From: an uncultured Clostridia bacterium
Lineage (GTDB): Bacteria; Bacillota; Clostridia; TANB77; CAG-508
Direction of reading: 5' to 3'
Assembly (NCBI GenBank): GCA_948517135.1
Contig: CAORJJ010000002.1
Span: forward strand, 671-61,140
Length of the DNA: 60,470 nucleotides
The translations under genes and the position numbers were made by a program. The notes under the pieces were generated by a model. The model was not told where the DNA came from and did not search any database. It saw nothing but the letters and a program-made list of their open reading frames with translations. Shown here piece after piece: positions 2,270 through 23,768 of the stretch (position 1 is its first letter; every line of letters starts with the position of its first letter).

Positions 2270-2542
2270 TCACTCTGTCACAACTTTATTATTCGTGCTT
2301 TTATCTAGAATTATATTCTTTATATCATTAAAATCAATTTCCAAAACAGATGCAAGTGCTATAAGTTCAAAATCTTTAACACTCATCTTAAAATTTTCAA
2401 TTCTATATATTTCATTTCTATCAAAATTAACTCCTAATTCTTTTAGTTTTCTACATAAAAGTGCTTTTGAATATCCTTTTTTCTTTCTCTCCTGAGACAA
2501 AAAATCACCTATTACATTTATTTTATTATTATATTTTTTCAT
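2270..2542 (-). CDS. XRE (Cro/C1) family helix-turn-helix transcriptional regulator
   Basis: 90 aa. The HTH segment KGYSKALLCRKLKELGVNFDRNEIYRIE is present. It starts 20 nt after the adhesin stop with a GAGGTG RBS, so it is probably co-transcribed. Confidence 0.8.
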   Translation of the reverse strand: MKKYNNKINVIGDFLSQERKKKGYSKALLCRKLKELGVNFDRNEIYRIENFKMSVKDFELIALASVLEIDFNDIKNIILDKSTNNKVVTE

Positions 2543-2562: not shown

Positions 2563-5500
2563 CTATACATTAATTTCCTTTTTATTTCTTTTCACTGATT
2601 TCTTTTGGTTATAAAATAGTACTTTCCAAGATATTAGAGCAATTATAAAACCTATAATTGTTATTATGTTTTTCTTTTCACCTCCAGTACTTGGAAATTC
2701 ATATTCTTTTGAATTAATAATCAATATATCTCCATTTTCTTTAATTATAACATCAGGTGCATCTTTTAATGCTGTTATTTTAGGAATAGGATTTTCCTGA
2801 ATTTCAAATTTTATTTTCCATTGTCCTGATGGAAGATGTCTTCCTGATAAAGCCTTTGTTTCAAGTAATCTGTATTCATATGTAATATTCAAGTCACTTA
2901 AATTAATTATTCCTTTATTAGAAGTGGTATATTCTTTAACTTTTTCCCAACACGAAGATACTTCTTTACAATCAATTAATTCACTATCATGATATGCTTC
3001 ATCATGTTCTTTACAAATTAATCTATATAATGAAAATTCTGTATCACCTATTTTAACATCATTATTTTCCTTAGCAACTTTAACAATAGTTAAATTAGTT
3101 GTTCTTACTCTATAATAATATATAACTTCTGTGTTTTCTTCGATTATTCCTTTACTATTTTCAGGTATAGAAACTAATTCATATATTTTGTAATCAACTC
3201 TAGTCTCTGGAGCCTGAGTAGTTTCGTATTCATCTCCTTTATGATACAAATTTTCAGTATATCTTTCATCAGGATCCAACAAAACTTCTGTATTTGATGG
3301 GTCTTTTTGTGGTACTGGATCATCAGTTCCCTCTAAATAATGATGTACAATTAATTTATAAGTTAGTTCTTTATAATAATAATTAACAATAATTATTGGG
3401 TTTTCAGATGTATATATTCCTTTGTAATTTTGAGGAATATATATATCATTTAAAAACTCCTCTGCTGTTTTATAATTTGAGTCTTCAAATTTTTCTACAT
3501 TCAATATTTCTAAAATTTCTTTTTCACTTTTTTCACCATAATACTCTTTATTAGTAATCAAATCATAATCAATATCCACTTTAGGAAGTGCTATATACTC
3601 TTGTCCACTTTCTCCAATATAATATTCACTTTTATCAACATTTTCTGTTGAAGATTCAACACTTCCTCTCCACAAATAATGATTAACTATCAATTTTAAT
3701 TCTTTTTCTTTTGGTGCAAATTCAACAACAATATGAATATTTTCTTTCATACTTTTAAAAATATCTAATATTGTACTTCCATCATCATTTAGTGTAAATT
3801 GATTAAATGCATTTCCATTTATTTCAATATTTTTTATTATATATCCCTCATCTGGTACAATTTTTATTTCACCTTTAGAATCAAATCCATAATAAACCTT
3901 TTCATTCGATATAGAGGTTAAAATCTTACCACCTTCAACTTCTTTATCTTCTTCTAAATGTTTTCTTACTTCTGTTGTTATTGTAAATTGTTTTAATATA
4001 TTTTCAATTTCTAATGATTGTTTTGTTGCAACAATAGCAGATGATGCACCTTCTGATATTACAAATCCTTCAAAATTTCCTAAACGCTTACATACTTGTA
4101 TTTCTCTTGTAGTTTCTTCGTCTTTTTTAAAATTTGTTGCAGTTAAAGTATTAGAACTAAAGAAACCACCTGCTACCCATCTACCATCTTCAGTTTCTGT
4201 AACTGAATTTATACCATTAACATTTTCGCCTTTTAGCATACTTGAATATTCAACTTTATAGTTTGAATCTAATTTTATAATATAACCATATGAAGTAAGA
4301 TTATTAGGTGTTCCATCTAATGCATATTTTTCTGTTAAGCCTTCTCCATTTATATCATTTGAATAATACCATCCACCAAATAAAATACCATTATCTGATG
4401 TTACTTTTACATCAGATACAAACTCACTTAAACTACCTGTTAAAGAATATAAAATTTGTTCCTGTATATTTTTTCCATCAATATTTATTTTATATATATA
4501 AGAATCATAATTACCAATATTTATTCCTGCAATTATACTATTATCTTTTGCAATATCAATACTTTCAATCCTTCCTCTGTTATAATAATTTGTACCAATA
4601 CTTTTAAATATATCTCTATAATTTCCTTCTAAAGAATATTCTACAACACCAGAAAAAAGTGCTAACCTGCTTTGTGTTGTAAGTGTTGGATATATTATCC
4701 CATTATAATTATTTAATGAAACTAATAAACCATCTGAATATTCAGCAACATCTGATACAAGCACATTTGAATTTTCACTTCTAATTCCTTGGCTCCATTG
4801 ATAATCACCATTAAAAGAATATGAGGCAATAAATCCATTTATATTAGATGAATTATTTATTGTATCTCTAACAGTAGAAGTATCTTTATTATAAAAATTA
4901 AAAATTCTACTATTATATTCACCTACTATAACAATATTTTTTTGACTTGTTTCTATAACAGATGTTATTTCTTCATCACCTATACCACCAAGTCTCACTC
5001 CCCATTGATAATTTCCAGATGAATCTAATTTTAATAATAATGCATCTTTTGCAGTAGAGTCTGAATTTTTTGTAAGACTTGAAATAATATTTCCATCATA
5101 TTTTACAGTATTTCCAGACACATAGCCAACTACAACATATCCATTATCTGAAGTGTGTATAACTTTATTAAATCCATCATCACCTGTACTACCAAAAGTC
5201 TTATACCAATTAATTTCACCTAATGAATTATATGAAATTATAATTCCATCCTCATTACCTTCTGATATCTTATCAATTATTTCATCATTATTAACATCAA
5301 TTCCACCTATTGTATCTAATATAGAATATTCTGAAAAAGTTCCTACGGCAATTGTTTCATTATTTTTTGAACTTGATACAGAATTAATATAATTCCACCC
5401 TTTTCCTCTAACAGAATTTATCCAATCTATCTTAGCAGATTGTGATGGTCCAATATAAAAATAATAAGTTCTATCTTCTTCCTTTTCAGGTAAAATATAT

Positions 5501-8500
5501 CCTTCTGGTGTTTCAATTTCTACTGCTTTATAAGTACCTTCTCCTATGTTAGCTGTTATTAAACCATTTGCATCTGTTTCTACTATATATCTATTTGTTG
5601 AAGCATCATATTCTCCAATATATTTACCATCAATTCCTTTTACATAGTTTCCTTCTAAATCTGTTATTATAAATTTAGTTCCTTCAATTGGTTGTTTTCC
5701 TTTTGTAATAGAATTATTACTATATTTATATAAAGAAAATATAGCAGTATCTTCTAAACCTATATTTACTATTGGATAAGAAGAATCTTGATTAACTATT
5801 TTTAAATCATTTATTTCACTTTCTTCGCCTGTATTCTCATCTTTTTGCTTTATTTTTCTAAGTAAATTTTCACCTTCAAGTATTACAATTCTAGGCTGTC
5901 CCTCGAGATTTCTCTCTAATTTAAATCTAAATTTAGTTAAATTTATAGAATATCCTGGTGGAGCATAGATTTCTTCTAAAATATATTCTCCTGTAATATT
6001 TTTACCTTCAATATATTCATATAAGCCATCAATTTTGAGTATACCATTTTTATTCGTAGTATAAACTTGTCCTTGTGATGGTATACCCTCTCCATATATC
6101 CTATATTGTGCATTTGCTAAAATTTTATCTTTTTCAATTCCGCTTTCATCTACTACCGTTTCATCTTTTGCATACTTAGTTAATTGTAAAGCATATGTAG
6201 GAATTTTTTTATTAGTTATATTGAAATTTACTATTGGAATATCTCCATAATCTTCAATACTACTTACAGGCTTTGAACTATTTTCTAAAAATAATAATTC
6301 AAACTTTCCATTATTATTTAAAACTTTAAAAATGATATCCTCTTCTAAATAATAGCCTGTTGCCTCAACCTCTTTTAAAACATATTCCTCATCTACCCAA
6401 AGTCCTGATACTAGAATTTCCCCATTTGAATCTGTTGTTAAAATTTCTCCATTTTTTCCTTTTCCACTAAGTGTAAACTTAATATTTTTTAGTGTCTCTC
6501 CTGTAACACTATCAGTCTTTTTTATTTTTAATTTTGATTTTATTTCATTATCAATTTCTAATTTAGCACTAAATTCATCTGTATTTTCTGAAGTTGTAGC
6601 ATTTCTCACATAATAATAAATATCATTTAATTTTGAATAAGTTCCATCATCATTAATATGTACAATTTGTAATATTTCTTTTCCTTCTGCATTTTTTCCC
6701 AAATATGTATAAAATTTTATTTCTTTATTATTTAATACATAATCATCTATATTATTTTCTTCTTTTAATATATATATCTTTTCTATAAATAAATTTGGAA
6801 TTATTATTTTTCCATCTTTGTTAGTAACTTTTATAGTACTTGAATTTTTTCCTTCTTCTGTAAGTGAAAACATAACTCCTGAAATCTTCTTATCTGTAAA
6901 TCTTTGATATTTTTCAATTTCCAGAGTATATGGTTTTCCAACCATTAATCCAAGTTTTGAACAAGCAGTTGAACCATGTAATAATCCTTTATCTGTTGAT
7001 AATGCATAATATAATGCATGTTCTGAATATGTAATTTCGTTATATTTTACATTTTCAGGTAAAGAAATTTCATATTTTAATTCTAAACTTTTGACTTTTA
7101 CAAAATCAAAAGAATTATCAATAATTACCATATATGATTTTATTGCATTCCAATCAGTTACTTCGTTTGCTAAAACCCATTTGTTATTTGCATCATTTTC
7201 ATCATTAGTTGTATTTTCTTCTGTTGAATAATATACTGTAATTTTATCCTTTAATTCTGGTGTTACAGCTTCTATTCCTTTTGAAGTCATATTAGTCGAA
7301 AATGTCGATTCCATATCTGTACCACTAAGTATATATTTGTTTCCTTTAAAAGGTATTACTCCATGAAATCTTACATTTTGTAAATTACCTTCATAATTAT
7401 TAATAGCAGATATTGTAATTGTAGCACTTCTTTGGTTTCTATCCACAACAGCAATTCTTGGAGCTATTGTAATTGAATTATTTTTATCGTAGTTACTTGC
7501 AATCTGAGTTGTATTTAAAGAACTTCCTGGATTAAATGTTATATTAATTGACTGATAATTAACTATTTCAGTTATATTATTATCATCATCAACATCATAA
7601 ATATCTGGCTTATTGTAATAATATTCTGTTCCTAACTCATTTACTGCATATAATTCTATTAAAGATTCTGTTTTAGTCCCTCTTGGATCTGGAGTTAAAT
7701 CACAATCTATTGTAATTGTATATAAATCTTCAATTATATTTTCTGTTAATATTTTTATAAAATAATTTCCATTTTCTTCATAAATATCATAAGCTGTTAT
7801 ATCTACATTTTCATTATCTATTGTTATACTATTTACTTCTGCCGATACAATATTTTCAGGTAATTTTACTAAAAATATACCATTCTTCCATTTACTTTCA
7901 TTATTACCAAAATTCTCTGTTGTAATTGTAATTTTTTCATTTTTGGCTGTTACTTGTGTAGATAATGTATTGTTTTCAATTGAAGTGGAAAAACTTGCAA
8001 TTGAAAATCTGCTACTATACATTGCAGTTGCATTCAATTCTATTCCTTGCCAAATAGTGTTTCCTGAATCATCAACAAAACCTGAAGTTATTCCCTTAAA
8101 ATAACTTGCTATTTCTATAAATTTAACAAATTCTTCTTTATCAATTTTTTTGGTAATATAATCATCATCAAGTTCTTTTATAGAATATATATTAAAATTA
8201 CTTTTCTTTTTAGGTCTACTACATTCAACTCTTATATGTTTAACAGAAACATCAAACAAGTATGGCCTATCATAAGTATAATAATTCCACGTTCTATCAT
8301 TAAACTCAGCTAATAATACATCTGTCTCATCATCAAAAACTTTTATCCAACCATTTGATCCTAATGAAGCAGTTGCACCTGAAAAATAAATTCCTCTATT
8401 AGTTACAAAATCCTCCATTGATATTCTTTCACCTTTAGAATTTATTAATTCATCAGATTTACCATTATCATTTAATATAATTTTTTCATATTTATCTTCA

Positions 8501-9891
8501 GTTCCTGCATATACACTCCATCTAACAACATATATATCATCCTTTTCTTCTAAAGATTTACCATTATATATATTCATTGGTTTATCTTTGGAAATTAAAT
8601 TTCTATAATATGGTAATCCTATATATGAACCAACTTCCATACCAAAACCAAGAGAACCTTCTTCTTCTTTTAAAGACCAATGAGTTAAAATAATTCCTTC
8701 AGAAACATTTGAAATTTGTGGATTTAAAAATCCATATTCTGTGTTTGGATTATTATAAGCTTTATTTATTGCTTTAACAGGAATAGATAAATCAAAATCT
8801 TTAATACTTCCATCTCCACTATCAAAAGCTTCTATTGGATATACAATTTTTAAATCATATTTATTATTTCTTACAGCAGTTCTGGAATTAACCGTTATGT
8901 CTGTATAAGCATTTGAAATTAAATTTCCATTTACATTTATTTTTGCTTCTCTTTGAGCTACAAATTCACCTGTTTCCTTATTATAATTATATTTTACATT
9001 ATTTCCAACAATTTCTACTGAAATTGGTTTGTACCCATGTAATTCTGGTATTGTTCCAGATATATATGAACCATACATTATTAGTTCATTTAAAGTTTCT
9101 GTACAATTAATTGAAACATCTAAACATACTCCTTCATCAGTTTTTAATTCATTAATATCATTAATATATTTAGTTTGACTTTTCGATTCTATATTACAAT
9201 CAACTTCTCCATACCAATCAATATTAATTGGAACTGTTTTAGTAAAATGTCTTTCATTTTCATTTTCTACATATGTTCCTGAAAAAACAATCCAATTTTG
9301 TAAACTATATTTTCTAGTATCATTTCCAATTGCTTCTCTTTTTTCACCTGTATTTTTATAATTTCCTGAACGAACTTCTCCCATTAATATTTTTTCAATA
9401 CCAGTAGTAATTGTATTTAGTTCTATTCTTTTAGTATTCGGAGATATACAATTGTTTGCTACTTCATTATCTTTAATTATTGCAGTACTTAAATAAAAAT
9501 TGTTTGAATTAATAGAGATTACTGCATCTTTTATATATCCCTCCTCTTTAACTGCAAATTTAAAATAAAGCTTTGATTGTTCACCAATTCTATTACAAGT
9601 TCCTCTAACTCTATTTGCATTATCATTTTCATCATTATCTGATAAAAAGAACGCATCAAATTCTAGTCCTTTTATCTCTTTATTGTTATCATCATTTACA
9701 ATAACATCTTTATCTTGAACAATTTCATAATTTTTAGTTATCAAAGCTTTTGGTGAAAATATTTGTTGCTGTGTTTTCTTTCCTTTTACAAATATACTAA
9801 TTATTGCTACAATTATTATCAAAAGAATAAATAAAATTTTAAACTTTAACTTTATATATGCAATTTTCCTTCTAGTTATTTTTTTCCTCAT
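2563..9891 (-). CDS. giant (2442 aa) multidomain cell-wall-anchored surface protein / adhesin
   Basis: Uninterrupted 7.3-kb ORF with an N-terminal TM/signal anchor (ILFILLIIIVAIISIFV). It has several CnaB/SpaA-like isopeptide-type repeats (e.g. KKTDSVTGETLKNIKFTLSG...GYYL) and a beta-propeller-like repeat block (DGFNKVIHTSDNGYVVVGY..., SBBP-like). Two MucBP-like modules are present (LKLIVNHYLW..., YKLIVHHYLEGTD...). The C-terminal sorting signal is FPSTGG (2680-2697) followed by a hydrophobic helix and a KKSVKRNKK tail. Confidence 0.85.
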   Translation of the reverse strand: MRKKITRRKIAYIKLKFKILFILLIIIVAIISIFVKGKKTQQQIFSPKALITKNYEIVQDKDVIVNDDNNKEIKGLEFDAFFLSDNDENDNANRVRGTCNRIGEQSKLYFKFAVKEEGYIKDAVISINSNNFYLSTAIIKDNEVANNCISPNTKRIELNTITTGIEKILMGEVRSGNYKNTGEKREAIGNDTRKYSLQNWIVFSGTYVENENERHFTKTVPINIDWYGEVDCNIESKSQTKYINDINELKTDEGVCLDVSINCTETLNELIMYGSYISGTIPELHGYKPISVEIVGNNVKYNYNKETGEFVAQREAKINVNGNLISNAYTDITVNSRTAVRNNKYDLKIVYPIEAFDSGDGSIKDFDLSIPVKAINKAYNNPNTEYGFLNPQISNVSEGIILTHWSLKEEEGSLGFGMEVGSYIGLPYYRNLISKDKPMNIYNGKSLEEKDDIYVVRWSVYAGTEDKYEKIILNDNGKSDELINSKGERISMEDFVTNRGIYFSGATASLGSNGWIKVFDDETDVLLAEFNDRTWNYYTYDRPYLFDVSVKHIRVECSRPKKKSNFNIYSIKELDDDYITKKIDKEEFVKFIEIASYFKGITSGFVDDSGNTIWQGIELNATAMYSSRFSIASFSTSIENNTLSTQVTAKNEKITITTENFGNNESKWKNGIFLVKLPENIVSAEVNSITIDNENVDITAYDIYEENGNYFIKILTENIIEDLYTITIDCDLTPDPRGTKTESLIELYAVNELGTEYYYNKPDIYDVDDDNNITEIVNYQSINITFNPGSSLNTTQIASNYDKNNSITIAPRIAVVDRNQRSATITISAINNYEGNLQNVRFHGVIPFKGNKYILSGTDMESTFSTNMTSKGIEAVTPELKDKITVYYSTEENTTNDENDANNKWVLANEVTDWNAIKSYMVIIDNSFDFVKVKSLELKYEISLPENVKYNEITYSEHALYYALSTDKGLLHGSTACSKLGLMVGKPYTLEIEKYQRFTDKKISGVMFSLTEEGKNSSTIKVTNKDGKIIIPNLFIEKIYILKEENNIDDYVLNNKEIKFYTYLGKNAEGKEILQIVHINDDGTYSKLNDIYYYVRNATTSENTDEFSAKLEIDNEIKSKLKIKKTDSVTGETLKNIKFTLSGKGKNGEILTTDSNGEILVSGLWVDEEYVLKEVEATGYYLEEDIIFKVLNNNGKFELLFLENSSKPVSSIEDYGDIPIVNFNITNKKIPTYALQLTKYAKDETVVDESGIEKDKILANAQYRIYGEGIPSQGQVYTTNKNGILKIDGLYEYIEGKNITGEYILEEIYAPPGYSINLTKFRFKLERNLEGQPRIVILEGENLLRKIKQKDENTGEESEINDLKIVNQDSSYPIVNIGLEDTAIFSLYKYSNNSITKGKQPIEGTKFIITDLEGNYVKGIDGKYIGEYDASTNRYIVETDANGLITANIGEGTYKAVEIETPEGYILPEKEEDRTYYFYIGPSQSAKIDWINSVRGKGWNYINSVSSSKNNETIAVGTFSEYSILDTIGGIDVNNDEIIDKISEGNEDGIIISYNSLGEINWYKTFGSTGDDGFNKVIHTSDNGYVVVGYVSGNTVKYDGNIISSLTKNSDSTAKDALLLKLDSSGNYQWGVRLGGIGDEEITSVIETSQKNIVIVGEYNSRIFNFYNKDTSTVRDTINNSSNINGFIASYSFNGDYQWSQGIRSENSNVLVSDVAEYSDGLLVSLNNYNGIIYPTLTTQSRLALFSGVVEYSLEGNYRDIFKSIGTNYYNRGRIESIDIAKDNSIIAGINIGNYDSYIYKINIDGKNIQEQILYSLTGSLSEFVSDVKVTSDNGILFGGWYYSNDINGEGLTEKYALDGTPNNLTSYGYIIKLDSNYKVEYSSMLKGENVNGINSVTETEDGRWVAGGFFSSNTLTATNFKKDEETTREIQVCKRLGNFEGFVISEGASSAIVATKQSLEIENILKQFTITTEVRKHLEEDKEVEGGKILTSISNEKVYYGFDSKGEIKIVPDEGYIIKNIEINGNAFNQFTLNDDGSTILDIFKSMKENIHIVVEFAPKEKELKLIVNHYLWRGSVESSTENVDKSEYYIGESGQEYIALPKVDIDYDLITNKEYYGEKSEKEILEILNVEKFEDSNYKTAEEFLNDIYIPQNYKGIYTSENPIIIVNYYYKELTYKLIVHHYLEGTDDPVPQKDPSNTEVLLDPDERYTENLYHKGDEYETTQAPETRVDYKIYELVSIPENSKGIIEENTEVIYYYRVRTTNLTIVKVAKENNDVKIGDTEFSLYRLICKEHDEAYHDSELIDCKEVSSCWEKVKEYTTSNKGIINLSDLNITYEYRLLETKALSGRHLPSGQWKIKFEIQENPIPKITALKDAPDVIIKENGDILIINSKEYEFPSTGGEKKNIITIIGFIIALISWKVLFYNQKKSVKRNKKEINV

Positions 9892-9939: not shown

Positions 9940-11739
9940 CTAGTGCCATAATTTGGTCCACCACCGTATATTTCCAATACCAAATTTTGAAGTTAATGAA
10001 GAGTACACAAACCAAAAACCTCCACCACGTATAGAACGATAATCTTCATCTTGTATTGTCATACTTATTTCACAAGTATTCCCAGCCATATCATATATGT
10101 TATTTACTTTTGAATATTCTGTACTTCCTGTTGGAATATATTTTTCTTGATTATATTTTTTTTCACTTATTGTCATATTAATATCAGAATAATACTTGAA
10201 TTCAGAATATTTAAAATTTCCCCACATTGGTGAACTCAAATCTACAAGCCTGTTAGTTATTAATGAACCATCTGATATTCTAATTGCATTAGAACTTACA
10301 AACCAACTTAAAGTTGCATCCCACAAACATCCCCAAACAGGCATAGTTGTTACTGCATCATTACTCTCTCCAATCTTTTTACATTTTATATAATTAACAT
10401 ATGAATTATGATTAGTATTATCTTCTTTCATCTTTTTTACAGAAGGTACTGCCTCGTCAAAATCAGTAGTTTCATATCTTCCCATATAAAATCCACCATA
10501 CTTTTCAATACTTTTCATTGTTTTGTAAAAATATTGTTCTAATTCTTTAGATAAATACTCATATCTTTTTTCTCTATTTCCATATGCTAGCATATCATTT
10601 TCTCTACCATCTATATTGTTACCAAGATTAGGTTCCCTAACGCCATTAGGATTAATTATTTTCATTATTCCATTTTCTTCAGTCCAATTATCAGGATTTC
10701 TACCATTAGCACTAAATAAATACATTTTACCAAAAAGCTTTCCTTTTTCATCTACTCCAAATAATTCAGATACGTTTTCTATTGGAACCCATACATACTG
10801 ATTTCTTTCTGTCTGTATTTTTAAAGTATTTTTATCTTGTTCTAGCATCCAACTATCATCATATTCTGTTGTTTCAAATTTATTGGTAGTTTCCTTTTCT
10901 ATACTATCATCAGTACTATTTACATTTTCACTTACTACATTATTTACAATTTCATTATTTACTACATTTTCAACTATTGTATTTGATATAGTATTTTCTC
11001 CTATATTTTCATTTACTACATTTTCTATACTATTTTGATTATTGATTGTATTTTCTTCTACTGTATTTATAATTTCATTTTCTACTACATTAACATTTTC
11101 AATATTTGCTACACTATGGCTATCTATCACAGTATTTTGAAGTGTTTCATTTTGTACAGTATTTTCTACTATATTTTCATTTACTACATTTTCTATATTG
11201 GTTGTATTCTCCAAATCATCAGAATTTATTGTATTATCTACTGTATTATTCCCTATTGTATTACTTGATATATTATTAATTGTATTATTATCTGCTATAT
11301 TATTATCTACTTTATTAGTTATATTGCTTTGATTTATTGTTGTAATTGAATTTGTAGAATTGCTATTTTCCTTTTTTACTTTTTCTATAACATTATCATC
11401 AATAGAAGAATTATTTTTGAGATTTTCCCAATAACTCCAATCTATATCCTCACCTTCATAAATTACAAAACCGCCATTCACATTCATTTCTCCTGGAATT
11501 TTTGAAGCAGAATATCCTTTAGGTACTGGAACCCATTTTCCTTCTATACTTTTTACCATTTTTACATTTTCACTTATTGAATCTGGCTCATCTCCATTTG
11601 TTGCTTGAGTTTTTCCAGATATGGAAATAATAATTGATATAATAGCTATTATTGCTCCTAGCAATACTGTAATTGTAGTCCCCCTACTTTTTAGTATCTT
11701 TATTGCTTCCATTTCAAGTCTACTTTTTTTATTTTTCAT
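9940..11739 (-). CDS. membrane-anchored protein with an N/V/E-rich low-complexity spacer and a C-terminal FGE-sulfatase (SUMF1-like) domain
   Basis: 599 aa with an N-terminal TM (ITVLLGAIIAIISIIISI). The central region has degenerate NxV/NxI repeats. The C-terminus has GGFYMGRYETT ... NIYDMAGNTCEI ... IRGGGFW, typical of FGE/SUMF1-type domains. It lies 48 nt upstream of the adhesin gene. Confidence 0.75.
   Translation of the reverse strand: MKNKKSRLEMEAIKILKSRGTTITVLLGAIIAIISIIISISGKTQATNGDEPDSISENVKMVKSIEGKWVPVPKGYSASKIPGEMNVNGGFVIYEGEDIDWSYWENLKNNSSIDDNVIEKVKKENSNSTNSITTINQSNITNKVDNNIADNNTINNISSNTIGNNTVDNTINSDDLENTTNIENVVNENIVENTVQNETLQNTVIDSHSVANIENVNVVENEIINTVEENTINNQNSIENVVNENIGENTISNTIVENVVNNEIVNNVVSENVNSTDDSIEKETTNKFETTEYDDSWMLEQDKNTLKIQTERNQYVWVPIENVSELFGVDEKGKLFGKMYLFSANGRNPDNWTEENGIMKIINPNGVREPNLGNNIDGRENDMLAYGNREKRYEYLSKELEQYFYKTMKSIEKYGGFYMGRYETTDFDEAVPSVKKMKEDNTNHNSYVNYIKCKKIGESNDAVTTMPVWGCLWDATLSWFVSSNAIRISDGSLITNRLVDLSSPMWGNFKYSEFKYYSDINMTISEKKYNQEKYIPTGSTEYSKVNNIYDMAGNTCEISMTIQDEDYRSIRGGGFWFVYSSLTSKFGIGNIRWWTKLWH
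11001..11197. repeat. in-frame 29-nt perfect direct repeat inside the FGE-domain gene (copies at 11001-11029 and 11169-11197)
   Basis: CTATATTTTCATTTACTACATTTTCTATA occurs twice, 168 bp (56 codons) apart. It encodes the IENVVNENI motif of the low-complexity region. Confidence 0.85.
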
Positions 11740-11774
11740 TATTATAGCCTCTTCTTCAAAATCTTTTACTATTA

Positions 11775-11793
11775 TTAAGTATGTAACTTAATA
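11775..11793. repeat. left inverted repeat (IRL) of a putative invertible DNA switch
   Basis: TTAAGTATGTAACTTAATA is the exact reverse complement of 11930-11948. It lies 35 bp upstream of the FGE-gene ATG. Confidence 0.8.
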
Positions 11794-11877
11794 ATACAGT
11801 ATAAAATAGATATATACTTTGAGACTGTATGTATATATTGATTTTGTAAATTGTTTTTCTGCTCAATATTCAAAATC

Positions 11878-11906
11878 TTGAAGTTTTTATAAATATGTGA
11901 TAATAT
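11878..11906 (+). promoter_or_regulatory. promoter-like element inside the invertible segment, currently pointing away from the surface operon
   Basis: TTGAAG (11878-11883) is followed by TGTGATAAT (11896-11904, extended -10; alternatively TAATAT at 17-nt spacing) on the plus strand. AT-rich DNA produces chance matches, so this is tentative. Confidence 0.4.
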
Positions 11907-11929
11907 GCATTAAAATATAAAATATATAC

Positions 11930-11948
11930 TATTAAGTTACATACTTAA
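11930..11948. repeat. right inverted repeat (IRR) of a putative invertible DNA switch
   Basis: TATTAAGTTACATACTTAA is the perfect 19-bp reverse complement of 11775-11793, separated from it by 136 bp. It lies 90 bp downstream of the recombinase stop. Confidence 0.8.
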
Positions 11949-12037
11949 ATATAAAAAGATTCATTTATCAGTACTTTAGCACGTTTTTATTATAGTACTT
12001 CTTTATTATTACTTTTTTATTACTTTTTTGTTACATT

Positions 12038-12949
12038 TTAAATCTTATCTATATATTTCTTCTTAATCTTATATGAAGAATGTACATATATGGAAAGTGT
12101 AACATCAACATTATTATGTCCTAACACTTCGCTTAAGGACTTTGCATCCATTCCAGCTCTAATGCATCTTGTTGCAAATGTATGTCTTAAACAATGAAAT
12201 TTTTTATAAAAAACATTACAATTTTTCAAGCACTTCTTATACGTAAATCTATATGTTATTGGCTCCATAAACCTTTCTTCAGTTCCAGTTAATATAAAGG
12301 AATTTTCAGAATAATCACATTTAATTTCTCTTAATTTCTTTAATAAAGTTTCAGCTATTGGTACTTTTCTTATAGATTTTATCGTTTTAGGTTCTGAAAA
12401 TACTACTTTGGTCTTCTTTTCTCCCATATAAATTCTTTGAACTGTTTTTTCAACATCTAAGATTTTTTTATTAAAGTCAATATTTTTCCATTTTAAAGCA
12501 CATACTTCTCCTATTCTAAGTCCAGTATATAAACTTATTAAAATTCCTACTTCTCTTATATTATTTGTATTTAAAAGATAATTTGTAATTCTGTTTTTTT
12601 CTCTTTCTGTTAATACTTCAATTTCTTTATTATAAATTACTGGCATATCAATTAAATCTATTTTTAAATCCATATCATACTTTCTTTCTGCATATCTTAG
12701 TATAGATTTTAAAATTGAAATTCTATCTCTCAAAGTTTTTCTAGAAATATTCTCTTTTAATTCTTCAATAATTCTATAAAAACTAGAATTTTCAATATCA
12801 TCTAAATCTACATTTTTAAAATATTTTTTTAAACATTCATTTACTACAAAACTATAATTAAAATAAGTAGATTCTTTAACCTTTGTTCTTTTGTAATTTA
12901 GCCATTCATCAAATAATTCATAAAGTTTAATTTTCAAATTACTTTTCAT
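12038..12949 (-). CDS. tyrosine site-specific recombinase (phage-integrase family), candidate invertase
   Basis: 303 aa. Box I is GLRIGEVCALKW. The C-terminal catalytic region is HCLRHTFATRCIRAGMDAKSLSEVLGHNNVDVTLSIYVH (HxxR...H...Y). AGGAGG RBS. No excisionase, phage or conjugation genes are nearby. Confidence 0.88.
   Translation of the reverse strand: MKSNLKIKLYELFDEWLNYKRTKVKESTYFNYSFVVNECLKKYFKNVDLDDIENSSFYRIIEELKENISRKTLRDRISILKSILRYAERKYDMDLKIDLIDMPVIYNKEIEVLTEREKNRITNYLLNTNNIREVGILISLYTGLRIGEVCALKWKNIDFNKKILDVEKTVQRIYMGEKKTKVVFSEPKTIKSIRKVPIAETLLKKLREIKCDYSENSFILTGTEERFMEPITYRFTYKKCLKNCNVFYKKFHCLRHTFATRCIRAGMDAKSLSEVLGHNNVDVTLSIYVHSSYKIKKKYIDKI

Positions 12950-23692: not shown

Positions 23693-23768
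<76 letters not shown>

Follow-up and report, generated by a model that had tools for sequence, protein, structure and literature searches.

In Escherichia coli, the fimS switch is a short promoter-bearing invertible segment that places a surface-structure operon under ON/OFF phase variation, with an OFF bias possible. It is 314 bp long, is bounded by 9-bp repeats, needs IHF and Lrp, and is served by FimB and FimE, with tyrosine recombinase genes lying immediately upstream on the same strand. A 60,470-nucleotide stretch of DNA from an uncultured Clostridia bacterium (contig CAORJJ010000002.1, positions 671 to 61,140), which we analysed as a whole and call the window, carries an element that is very probably a switch of the same kind, i.e. 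a recombinase-driven promoter-inversion (phase-variation) switch upstream of a surface operon. The mechanism is conventional, the textbook on/off promoter inversion of the fimS type with a locally encoded tyrosine recombinase, and the resemblance covers the short promoter-bearing segment, the surface operon downstream and the position and strand of the recombinase gene. Unlike fimS, the window has a 136-bp segment, 19-bp repeats that form full palindromic core sites, and one recombinase gene instead of two, whose product is outside the FimB/FimE family. The element has the layout of an inverton, a pair of inverted repeats around a short intergenic segment beside a gene, and the gut invertons catalogued by PhaseFinder and DeepInverton share this class definition, an intergenic promoter flanked by inverted repeats near surface or adhesion genes. 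According to PMC11602134 and PMC11892184, invertons are widespread in Firmicutes in human metagenomes. Our literature searches found no paper on an invertible promoter before sortase-anchored (LPXTG/SpaA) proteins in Clostridia.

The RecV switches of C. difficile (cwpV, flgB, cmrRST and pdcB) share with the window a host of the class Clostridia, an Xer-like recombinase and surface or motility genes downstream, and have repeats of ~21 bp and segments of 150-200 bp, compared with 19 bp and 136 bp here. One recombinase serves several unlinked sites in the case of RecV, and the same is suggested here by recombinase-less switches with an identical repeat, described below. The cwpV promoter lies outside the invertible region, the OFF transcript contains an intrinsic terminator, and the switch is not linked to recV (PMC2784873); the flgB switch uses Rho (PMC7446863). 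In the window, by contrast, the segment itself holds the predicted promoter, the recombinase gene lies next to the switch, and the terminator prediction was negative. The text of Sekulovic et al. 2018 (PMC5903667) gives no repeat sequences for a consensus comparison. The parts of the switch in the window are as follows.

11775-11793, no strand: operon-proximal repeat (IRL), TTAAGTATGTAACTTAATA, from the sequence and a repeat finder
11930-11948, no strand: recombinase-proximal repeat (IRR), the exact reverse complement of IRL, from the sequence and a repeat finder
11794-11929, no strand: predicted invertible segment, non-coding, 136 bp, from alignment with sister lineages
11878-11906, plus strand: predicted sigma-A-type extended -10 promoter, from the sequence and its conserved position and consensus in related switches
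11817-11831, minus strand: second conserved block, CATACAGTCTCAAAG (family consensus CTTACAGTATCAA), kept among paralogous switches
12038-12949, minus strand: tyrosine recombinase of 303 aa, candidate invertase, from Pfam and catalytic motifs

The strongest evidence that such an element inverts comes from relatives of the window. In a lineage whose recombinase (P0009) is 80% identical, the locus has the same synteny, and its repeat, TTAAGTATATAACTTAATA, is identical at 18 of 19 positions, with one central base differing. Here, between collinear flanks, the segment is found both ways round, one way in contigs L004 and L006 and the other way in L005 and L007, and eight similar places alongside L007 carry the orientation of L007. 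The L006 segment is the 100% reverse complement of the L007 segment while the operon-side flank is identical, and the flank haplotype shared by L005, L007 and L008 bears the opposite segment orientation in L012.

A second line of evidence is the way in which assemblies break. We simulated k=31 de Bruijn graphs with both orientations or with a single orientation, and compared the predicted branches with the ends of Logan contigs from the P0009 group and from the P0003 lineage, the closest sister group of the window, whose recombinase is 85% identical and whose segment is homologous. With a single orientation, the graph has no branch at the switch. With both, branches appear +0 and +7 from the repeat end for P0009, and +3, +11 and +156 from it for P0003. 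The observed contig ends are at +0 (three contigs), +7 (two) and +8 in the former and at +3, +11 and +155 in the latter, such that, in total, nine truncated k=31 contigs of the two sister lineages stop at a predicted branch point or within 1 nt of one. The breaks are therefore the expected footprint of mixtures of orientations within samples. The earlier note on this DNA had proposed an invertible promoter switch assembled in its OFF state and had suggested comparing orientation across related assemblies. That comparison found both orientations in lineages with 80% and 50% identical recombinases, and these, together with the contig breaks and a conserved outward-reading extended -10 promoter, support the proposal. 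From these comparisons we assign the window element, with high confidence, to a family of actively inverting promoter switches.

The repeats themselves are exceptional in the window. Among the perfect inverted repeats whose arms are at most 3 kb apart, the 19-bp pair is the longest (the runner-up has 15 nt), and none of 100 dinucleotide-preserving shuffles gave 19 nt, the maximum being 18 nt, in three of them. We reject a chance origin on the basis of the shuffles and of conservation. The pair extends imperfectly to 27 nt (11770-11796 and 11927-11953, 89% complementary). At up to three mismatches, the 19-mer is found within the window at IRL and IRR only, as is the motif TTAAG-N7-CTTAA. Each arm is itself palindromic (TTAAG-TATGTAA-CTTAA), and on the operon side the palindrome reaches TATTATTAAGT-ATGTA-ACTTAATAATA (11770-11796). 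Inverted binding arms around a short asymmetric centre are the layout of a complete tyrosine-recombinase core site, as in lox, FRT and dif sites, and by this analogy each 19-bp repeat appears to be such a complete site, with TATGTAA as its asymmetric 7-bp centre. On the operon side, the repeat together with its flank, TATTATTAAGTTAyATACTTAATAATAGTAAAA, does not vary among the lineages with 99%, 85% and 80% identical recombinases. Between the recombinase gene and the switch, around the recombinase stop codon, there are also three imperfect direct repeats with 11-nt spacing (11991-12043, TTATTACTTTTTT-like).

The segment length is held at 136-137 bp in sister lineages. Alignments of sister-lineage and paralogous switches reveal divergent interiors with three conserved parts, namely the repeats, an outward-reading promoter and a shorter block. 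The promoter, TTGnnn-16/17-TG-n-TAAAAT, is the best conserved interior block and lies ~15-30 nt from one repeat. Its equivalents are TTGAAT-16-TG-n-TAAAAT in the P0003 lineage (L014), TTGCAA-17-TAGAAT in the P0009 group and TTGAAA-16-TG-n-TAAAAT in 14 copies from a deer-mouse metagenome. In the window, guided by the family alignment, we place the -35 element TTGAAG at 11878-11883, followed by a 17-nt spacer with TG at 11898-11899, and the -10 element TAATAT at 11901-11906. The promoter faces the gene directly, at a typical leader distance, at L084, L173, L071, L072, L180, L005 and L007, and away from the gene at other loci. The window promoter reads toward IRR, in the direction of the 3' end of the recombinase gene. 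Since it is thus directed away from the operon, the window copy would represent the OFF state.

Much of the layout had been anticipated by the earlier note. The 19-bp perfect repeats around 136 bp, the stop of the recombinase open reading frame (ORF) at 12038 and the ATG of the next ORF at 11739, the 35 bp between IRL and the ATG, and a promoter-like sequence that faces away from the operon are all found as it described them. Its TTGAAG element is kept, while its GATAAT at a 15-nt spacing gives way to TG-n-TAATAT with the 17-nt spacer, which fits the family alignment better. Its estimate of about 70 nt between promoter and ATG after inversion agrees with the refined position, from which the inverted segment would start transcription ~70 nt upstream of the ATG at 11739.

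In the model that we favour, the 303-aa recombinase would bind both 19-bp sites, and recombination would flip the 136-bp segment with its one strong extended -10 promoter, predicted near one end and reading outward across a repeat. In the window orientation, this promoter would aim at the 3' end of the recombinase gene and leave the operon OFF. After inversion it would read through the operon-side repeat, produce an mRNA with a leader of ~70 nt, and turn ON an operon whose cargo would be a 599-aa FGE-fold-like membrane protein, a 2442-aa sortase-type SpaA adhesin and a small helix-turn-helix protein. For the window copy, the inverted state should be recognizable by the junctions ...CTTTTACTATTA + repeat + GTATATATTTT and ...TCTTTTTATAT + repeat + ATACAGTATAAA. 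We can also speculate that the OFF-state promoter transcribes antisense into the recombinase gene and thereby feeds back on the switching rate.

The recombinase gene lies upstream of the switch, is co-directional with the operon and ends 89 bp from the switch. Its product matches Phage_integrase (PF00589) with E=7.7e-26 and 91.3 bits, against a cutoff of 27.1, and has an N-terminal SAM-like domain (Phage_int_SAM_3 in Pfam). The catalytic motifs are present (R145 in LRIGE, H252-x-x-R255, H278 and Y288), so that both the catalytic domain and the active-site residues are those of a PF00589 tyrosine site-specific recombinase. Its best relative in the PDB is Tn1549 Int (6emy, E=2.6e-17), and XerA is also among them. 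Against the named NCBIfam models, Xer-like matches all remain far under their cutoffs, and the FimB/FimE-type invertase models reach 19.2 bits (NF007371, cutoff 222) and 18.4 bits (NF007370, cutoff 221). Pfam and NCBIfam detect tyrosine-recombinase domains only, and none of a serine invertase of the Hin/Gin/Mpi kind. Given its place beside the sites, this recombinase is probably the switching enzyme.

Several points weigh against a working promoter switch in the window. Identical or 99%-identical loci are present in mouse-gut metagenome-assembled genomes (MAGs) labelled "uncultured Clostridia bacterium" (MGBC) and in ENA and Logan assemblies, and we gathered contigs of this own lineage through exact-protein look-ups of the recombinase, of the 599-aa protein and of three close variants. 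The inverted state is absent from all 17 of these contigs, some of which are not independent, and every one has the window orientation. Moreover, the own-lineage Logan contigs cross the switch unbroken. The window copy could be strongly OFF-biased or locked. In addition, it is adjacency that pairs the recombinase with the site, the promoter and its strength are sequence predictions (our consensus scanner omitted the promoter as first written, with the 15-nt spacer), the second conserved block (11817-31) has no explanation in the model, and transcription of the operon could also come from outside the segment, as read-through out of the recombinase gene or by way of a weak promoter located in 11949-12037.

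Because no inverted copy occurs in the 17 contigs, we infer by homology that the exact window copy still inverts. The uniform orientation and the unbroken contigs speak for a different reading, in which the switch is real in the family but is a fossil or locked in the window lineage, with the operon constitutively silent or driven by another promoter. We consider this unlikely, since the repeats are perfect at 19 of 19 positions, the recombinase ORF with its catalytic motifs and the operon genes are intact, and sister lineages with repeats identical at 18 of 19 positions do invert. Furthermore, a switch biased toward OFF should yield a consensus in which OFF is the majority, and cwpV, for example, is ON in ~5% of cells (PMC2784873). 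Two contigs from one sample have ends at positions that do not fit a break caused by mixed orientations. L003 ends 3 nt past the operon-side repeat, and its sample-mate L033 starts inside the segment; we judged both to be low-coverage or adapter artefacts. In L033 (ERZ776993 NODE_428), positions 1-21 are the Nextera adapter sequence TCAGATGTGTATAAGAGACAG fused to the switch interior, which is adapter contamination in a public assembly.

The second conserved block lies ~35 nt from the operon-side repeat and has a TAnAnT element ~17 nt downstream, likewise in related switches. It could be a site for an accessory factor, or a weak or alternative -35 element or promoter. If it were the latter, the polarity of the switch might be reversed, such that the common orientation expresses the operon through the CTTACAGTATCAA block and TAnAnT 17 nt downstream, and the strong promoter serves, e.g., antisense control of the recombinase. 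The common orientation does dominate in the lineages of the window and of P0003 and is the one seen in all 14 deer-mouse copies, and the block is kept at a fixed distance from the gene-side repeat. However, its -35 element (GTATCA or GTCTCA) is a poor match to sigma-A, the strong promoter faces the gene at a typical leader distance at the loci named above, and at orphan switches, in the common orientation, the strong promoter is directed into the 3' end of an upstream gene that is unrelated. We therefore regard reversed polarity as quite unlikely.

A mechanism like that of cwpV or flgB would instead rely on a fixed promoter ahead of the recombinase-side repeat, or on read-through from the recombinase gene, and let the orientation set termination or mRNA fate in the leader. 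Precedent exists (PMC2784873), the recombinase is co-directional with the operon, and the ~90 bp upstream of the switch (11949-12037) hold a weak promoter-like GTAACA-18-AATAAT. However, no intrinsic terminator is predicted on either strand between 9800 and 13400, hence in neither orientation, and the predicted fold of the leader RNA consists only of pairing between the two repeats. A terminator mechanism like that of cwpV is therefore not favoured. Beyond this, the best conserved interior element, and the best promoter, is the strong extended -10 promoter inside the segment beside a repeat, and orphan switches share no upstream gene-specific promoter region, making this mechanism very unlikely here. 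A reading without any recombination, in which the palindromes are operators for a dimeric regulator (e.g. the operon's helix-turn-helix protein) or arose by chance in AT-rich DNA, could appeal to the operator-typical 6-5-6 (up to 11-5-11) palindrome of each arm and the 26% G+C genome, but is hardly credible given the asymmetric centres in exact inverted orientation, the homologous segments physically inverted in relatives, the failure of all 100 shuffles to reach 19 nt, and the recurrence of the site beside family recombinases down to 38% identity.

Under the favoured promoter-inversion model, the operon downstream would be the target of phase variation. The window has ~26% G+C, and all genes near the switch are on the minus strand. 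The gap between IRL and the ATG (35 bp, 11740-11774) holds only a ribosome-binding site, and the predicted promoter in the segment would probably be the only one of the operon. The putative operon contains the following features.

11748-11754, minus strand: ribosome-binding site GAAGAGG of the first operon gene, from the sequence
9940-11739, minus strand: 599-aa protein, anchored in the membrane, with an Asn-rich repeat region and, at the C-terminus, a putative divergent FGE-sulfatase-like domain, from family-level matches
2563-9891, minus strand: 2442-aa surface protein, from Pfam and its termini
2270-2542, minus strand: 90-aa putative helix-turn-helix protein, last gene of the putative operon, from a sub-threshold Pfam match

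The earlier note had called the first protein an FGE protein, a label that survives in weakened form. The 599-aa protein itself has no FGE match in Pfam, NCBIfam or the PDB, even at E<=10. Among the 24 aligned family members (the window protein and 23 homologues), 13 match PF03781, with a best E-value of 2.6e-6, and a profile of the family finds SUMF2 (1y4j) at E=0.0016 and PorK/GldK at ~0.1. These homologues and the family profile weakly link the first gene to the FGE-sulfatase fold. Its Asn-rich region is encoded by direct repeats with 84-nt and 168-nt spacing (11001-11400). Close strains have variants of 542-543 aa (P0122-P0124), in which the C-terminal 314 residues are 98% identical; the difference in length therefore lies upstream of that region, plausibly in the direct repeats.

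The 2442-aa protein has an N-terminal signal or anchor sequence and five SpaA (prealbumin-fold) domains (Pfam E=5.5e-43). It ends in FPSTGG, a hydrophobic stretch or helix and a basic tail. This motif is non-canonical and has no Gram_pos_anchor match in Pfam, but from its layout we read it as a variant of a sortase-type sorting signal. A 20-nt gap with a ribosome-binding site separates the adhesin gene from that for the 90-aa protein. The latter, an XRE regulator in the earlier note, matches HTH_3 below the cutoff (E=0.0024, 18.3 bits against 23), so this assignment holds at a sub-threshold level only. The fructose-bisphosphate aldolase gene beyond the operon has its own promoter, TTGACA-17-TACAAT. 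The locus offers a concrete candidate for a switch by which an uncultured Clostridia lineage of the mouse gut would phase-vary a giant adhesin operon of putative sortase type.

Related switches are found well beyond this lineage. A 50%-identical recombinase, P0057, is common in human-gut metagenomes and has two switches downstream, one with the repeat ATTAAGCTAGAAACTTAAT and a 124-bp segment and the other with the repeat ATTAAGCTTGAAAACTTAATAAA and a 117-bp segment, each in both orientations across assemblies. A 38%-identical relative in a Bacilli MAG (L041) has repeats with TTAAGT...ACTTAA arms around its own recombinase gene. These are 55-nt inverted repeats with a TTAAGT-N5-ACTTAA core (L041, 3870-3924 and 5003-5057), and the invertase may lie inside its own invertible segment. 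We also scanned metagenomes for the 19-mer of the window, with R permitted as the central base. Of the 117 hits, the majority stand alone with no partner, and these we set aside as chance or unrelated occurrences; 23 loci have an inverted partner, with the repeats flanking segments of 124-150 bp. At least 14 of these 23 loci are on seven contigs of a single faecal assembly from the deer mouse Peromyscus leucopus (JAAGKN01; PMC7446861):

L077, L099, L111, L136, L170, L174, L085, L153, L115, L169, L142, L163, L177 and L181: switches of JAAGKN01, from the 19-mer scan

In 12 aligned deer-mouse copies, ~20 nt separate the repeat from the adjacent gene's ribosome-binding site, and in all 14 the strong promoter faces away from the gene. 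Six of the adjacent proteins (668-1418 aa) were scanned with Pfam; all six have SpaA and pilin-backbone domains, and five have Gram_pos_anchor. The fetched flanks of these metagenome switch loci contain no homologue of the recombinase, and the switches without one are presumably flipped in trans.

This arrangement resembles the Mpi regulon and the Tsr systems of Bacteroides fragilis, in which many promoter invertons with one repeat sequence diversify a gut surface repertoire. There, the combination of ON and OFF promoters varies; Mpi belongs to the serine recombinases, and Tsr tyrosine recombinases serve outer-surface proteins. The B. fragilis system differs in that it belongs to Gram-negative Bacteroidota and governs capsules and outer-membrane proteins, whereas the proteins here are sortase-anchored SpaA/LPXTG proteins of low-G+C Clostridia. 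For this comparison we also drew on the reference list of PMC11602134.

We tentatively propose, as a possibility that falls short of being probable, that the window element is the recombinase-linked copy of a portable promoter cassette, made up of TTAAG-N7-CTTAA sites and an outward extended -10 promoter. At many loci, this cassette would be inverted in trans by a single family of Xer-like recombinases, which would give uncultured low-G+C Clostridia of the rodent and human gut a combinatorial, mostly-OFF repertoire of sortase-anchored SpaA/LPXTG adhesins, and the OFF-state promoter, being antisense to the recombinase, could feed back. If this is true, such a multi-locus adhesin regulon would be for Gram-positive bacteria what the Mpi regulon is for Bacteroides. 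The conserved site (the TTAAG-N7-CTTAA core in a 19-bp repeat) identifies a broader group of switches in gut metagenomes of rodents and humans, and the data suggest that promoter inversion is used by Gram-positive gut commensals to vary their repertoire of adhesins, in the way that Bacteroides varies its capsules. In metagenomes, the state of adhesin expression could then be read from contig breaks and from counts of the two orientations.

Other recombinase relatives are found in different settings. In a GTDB representative MAG (L039), whose recombinase is 81% identical, one mutated hybrid site, TTAAATTATATACTTAA, lies downstream of the recombinase gene (4990-5060). The locus has neither the segment nor any of the adhesin operon and continues to a small ORF and an aldolase gene; the site may be the remnant of a switch that was deleted. 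Around the 55%-identical recombinase P0025 (L055), inverted repeats of 69 nt and 40 nt flank segments of 119 bp and 133 bp (1439-1695 and 4342-4554) on either side of the recombinase gene, near a helix-turn-helix gene and an ABC-transporter operon, and the repeat is unlike that of the window.

The homologues P0002 (88% identical, L035-L037) and P0015 (74%, L058-L066) are in unrelated contexts with no adjacent repeat pair, and may act in trans or have other roles. A recurrent contig start 187 bp upstream of P0015 was considered as a switch and rejected as a breakpoint of strain variation. Among the contexts of these two homologues is one ahead of a T-box-like leader and of a gene resembling that for threonyl-tRNA synthetase, with tRNA_SAD and tRNA-synt_2b domains. 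Finally, an Rfam scan of the whole window gave no match at the switch, and its sole match at the gathering threshold is a tRNA gene at 23696-23768 on the minus strand.

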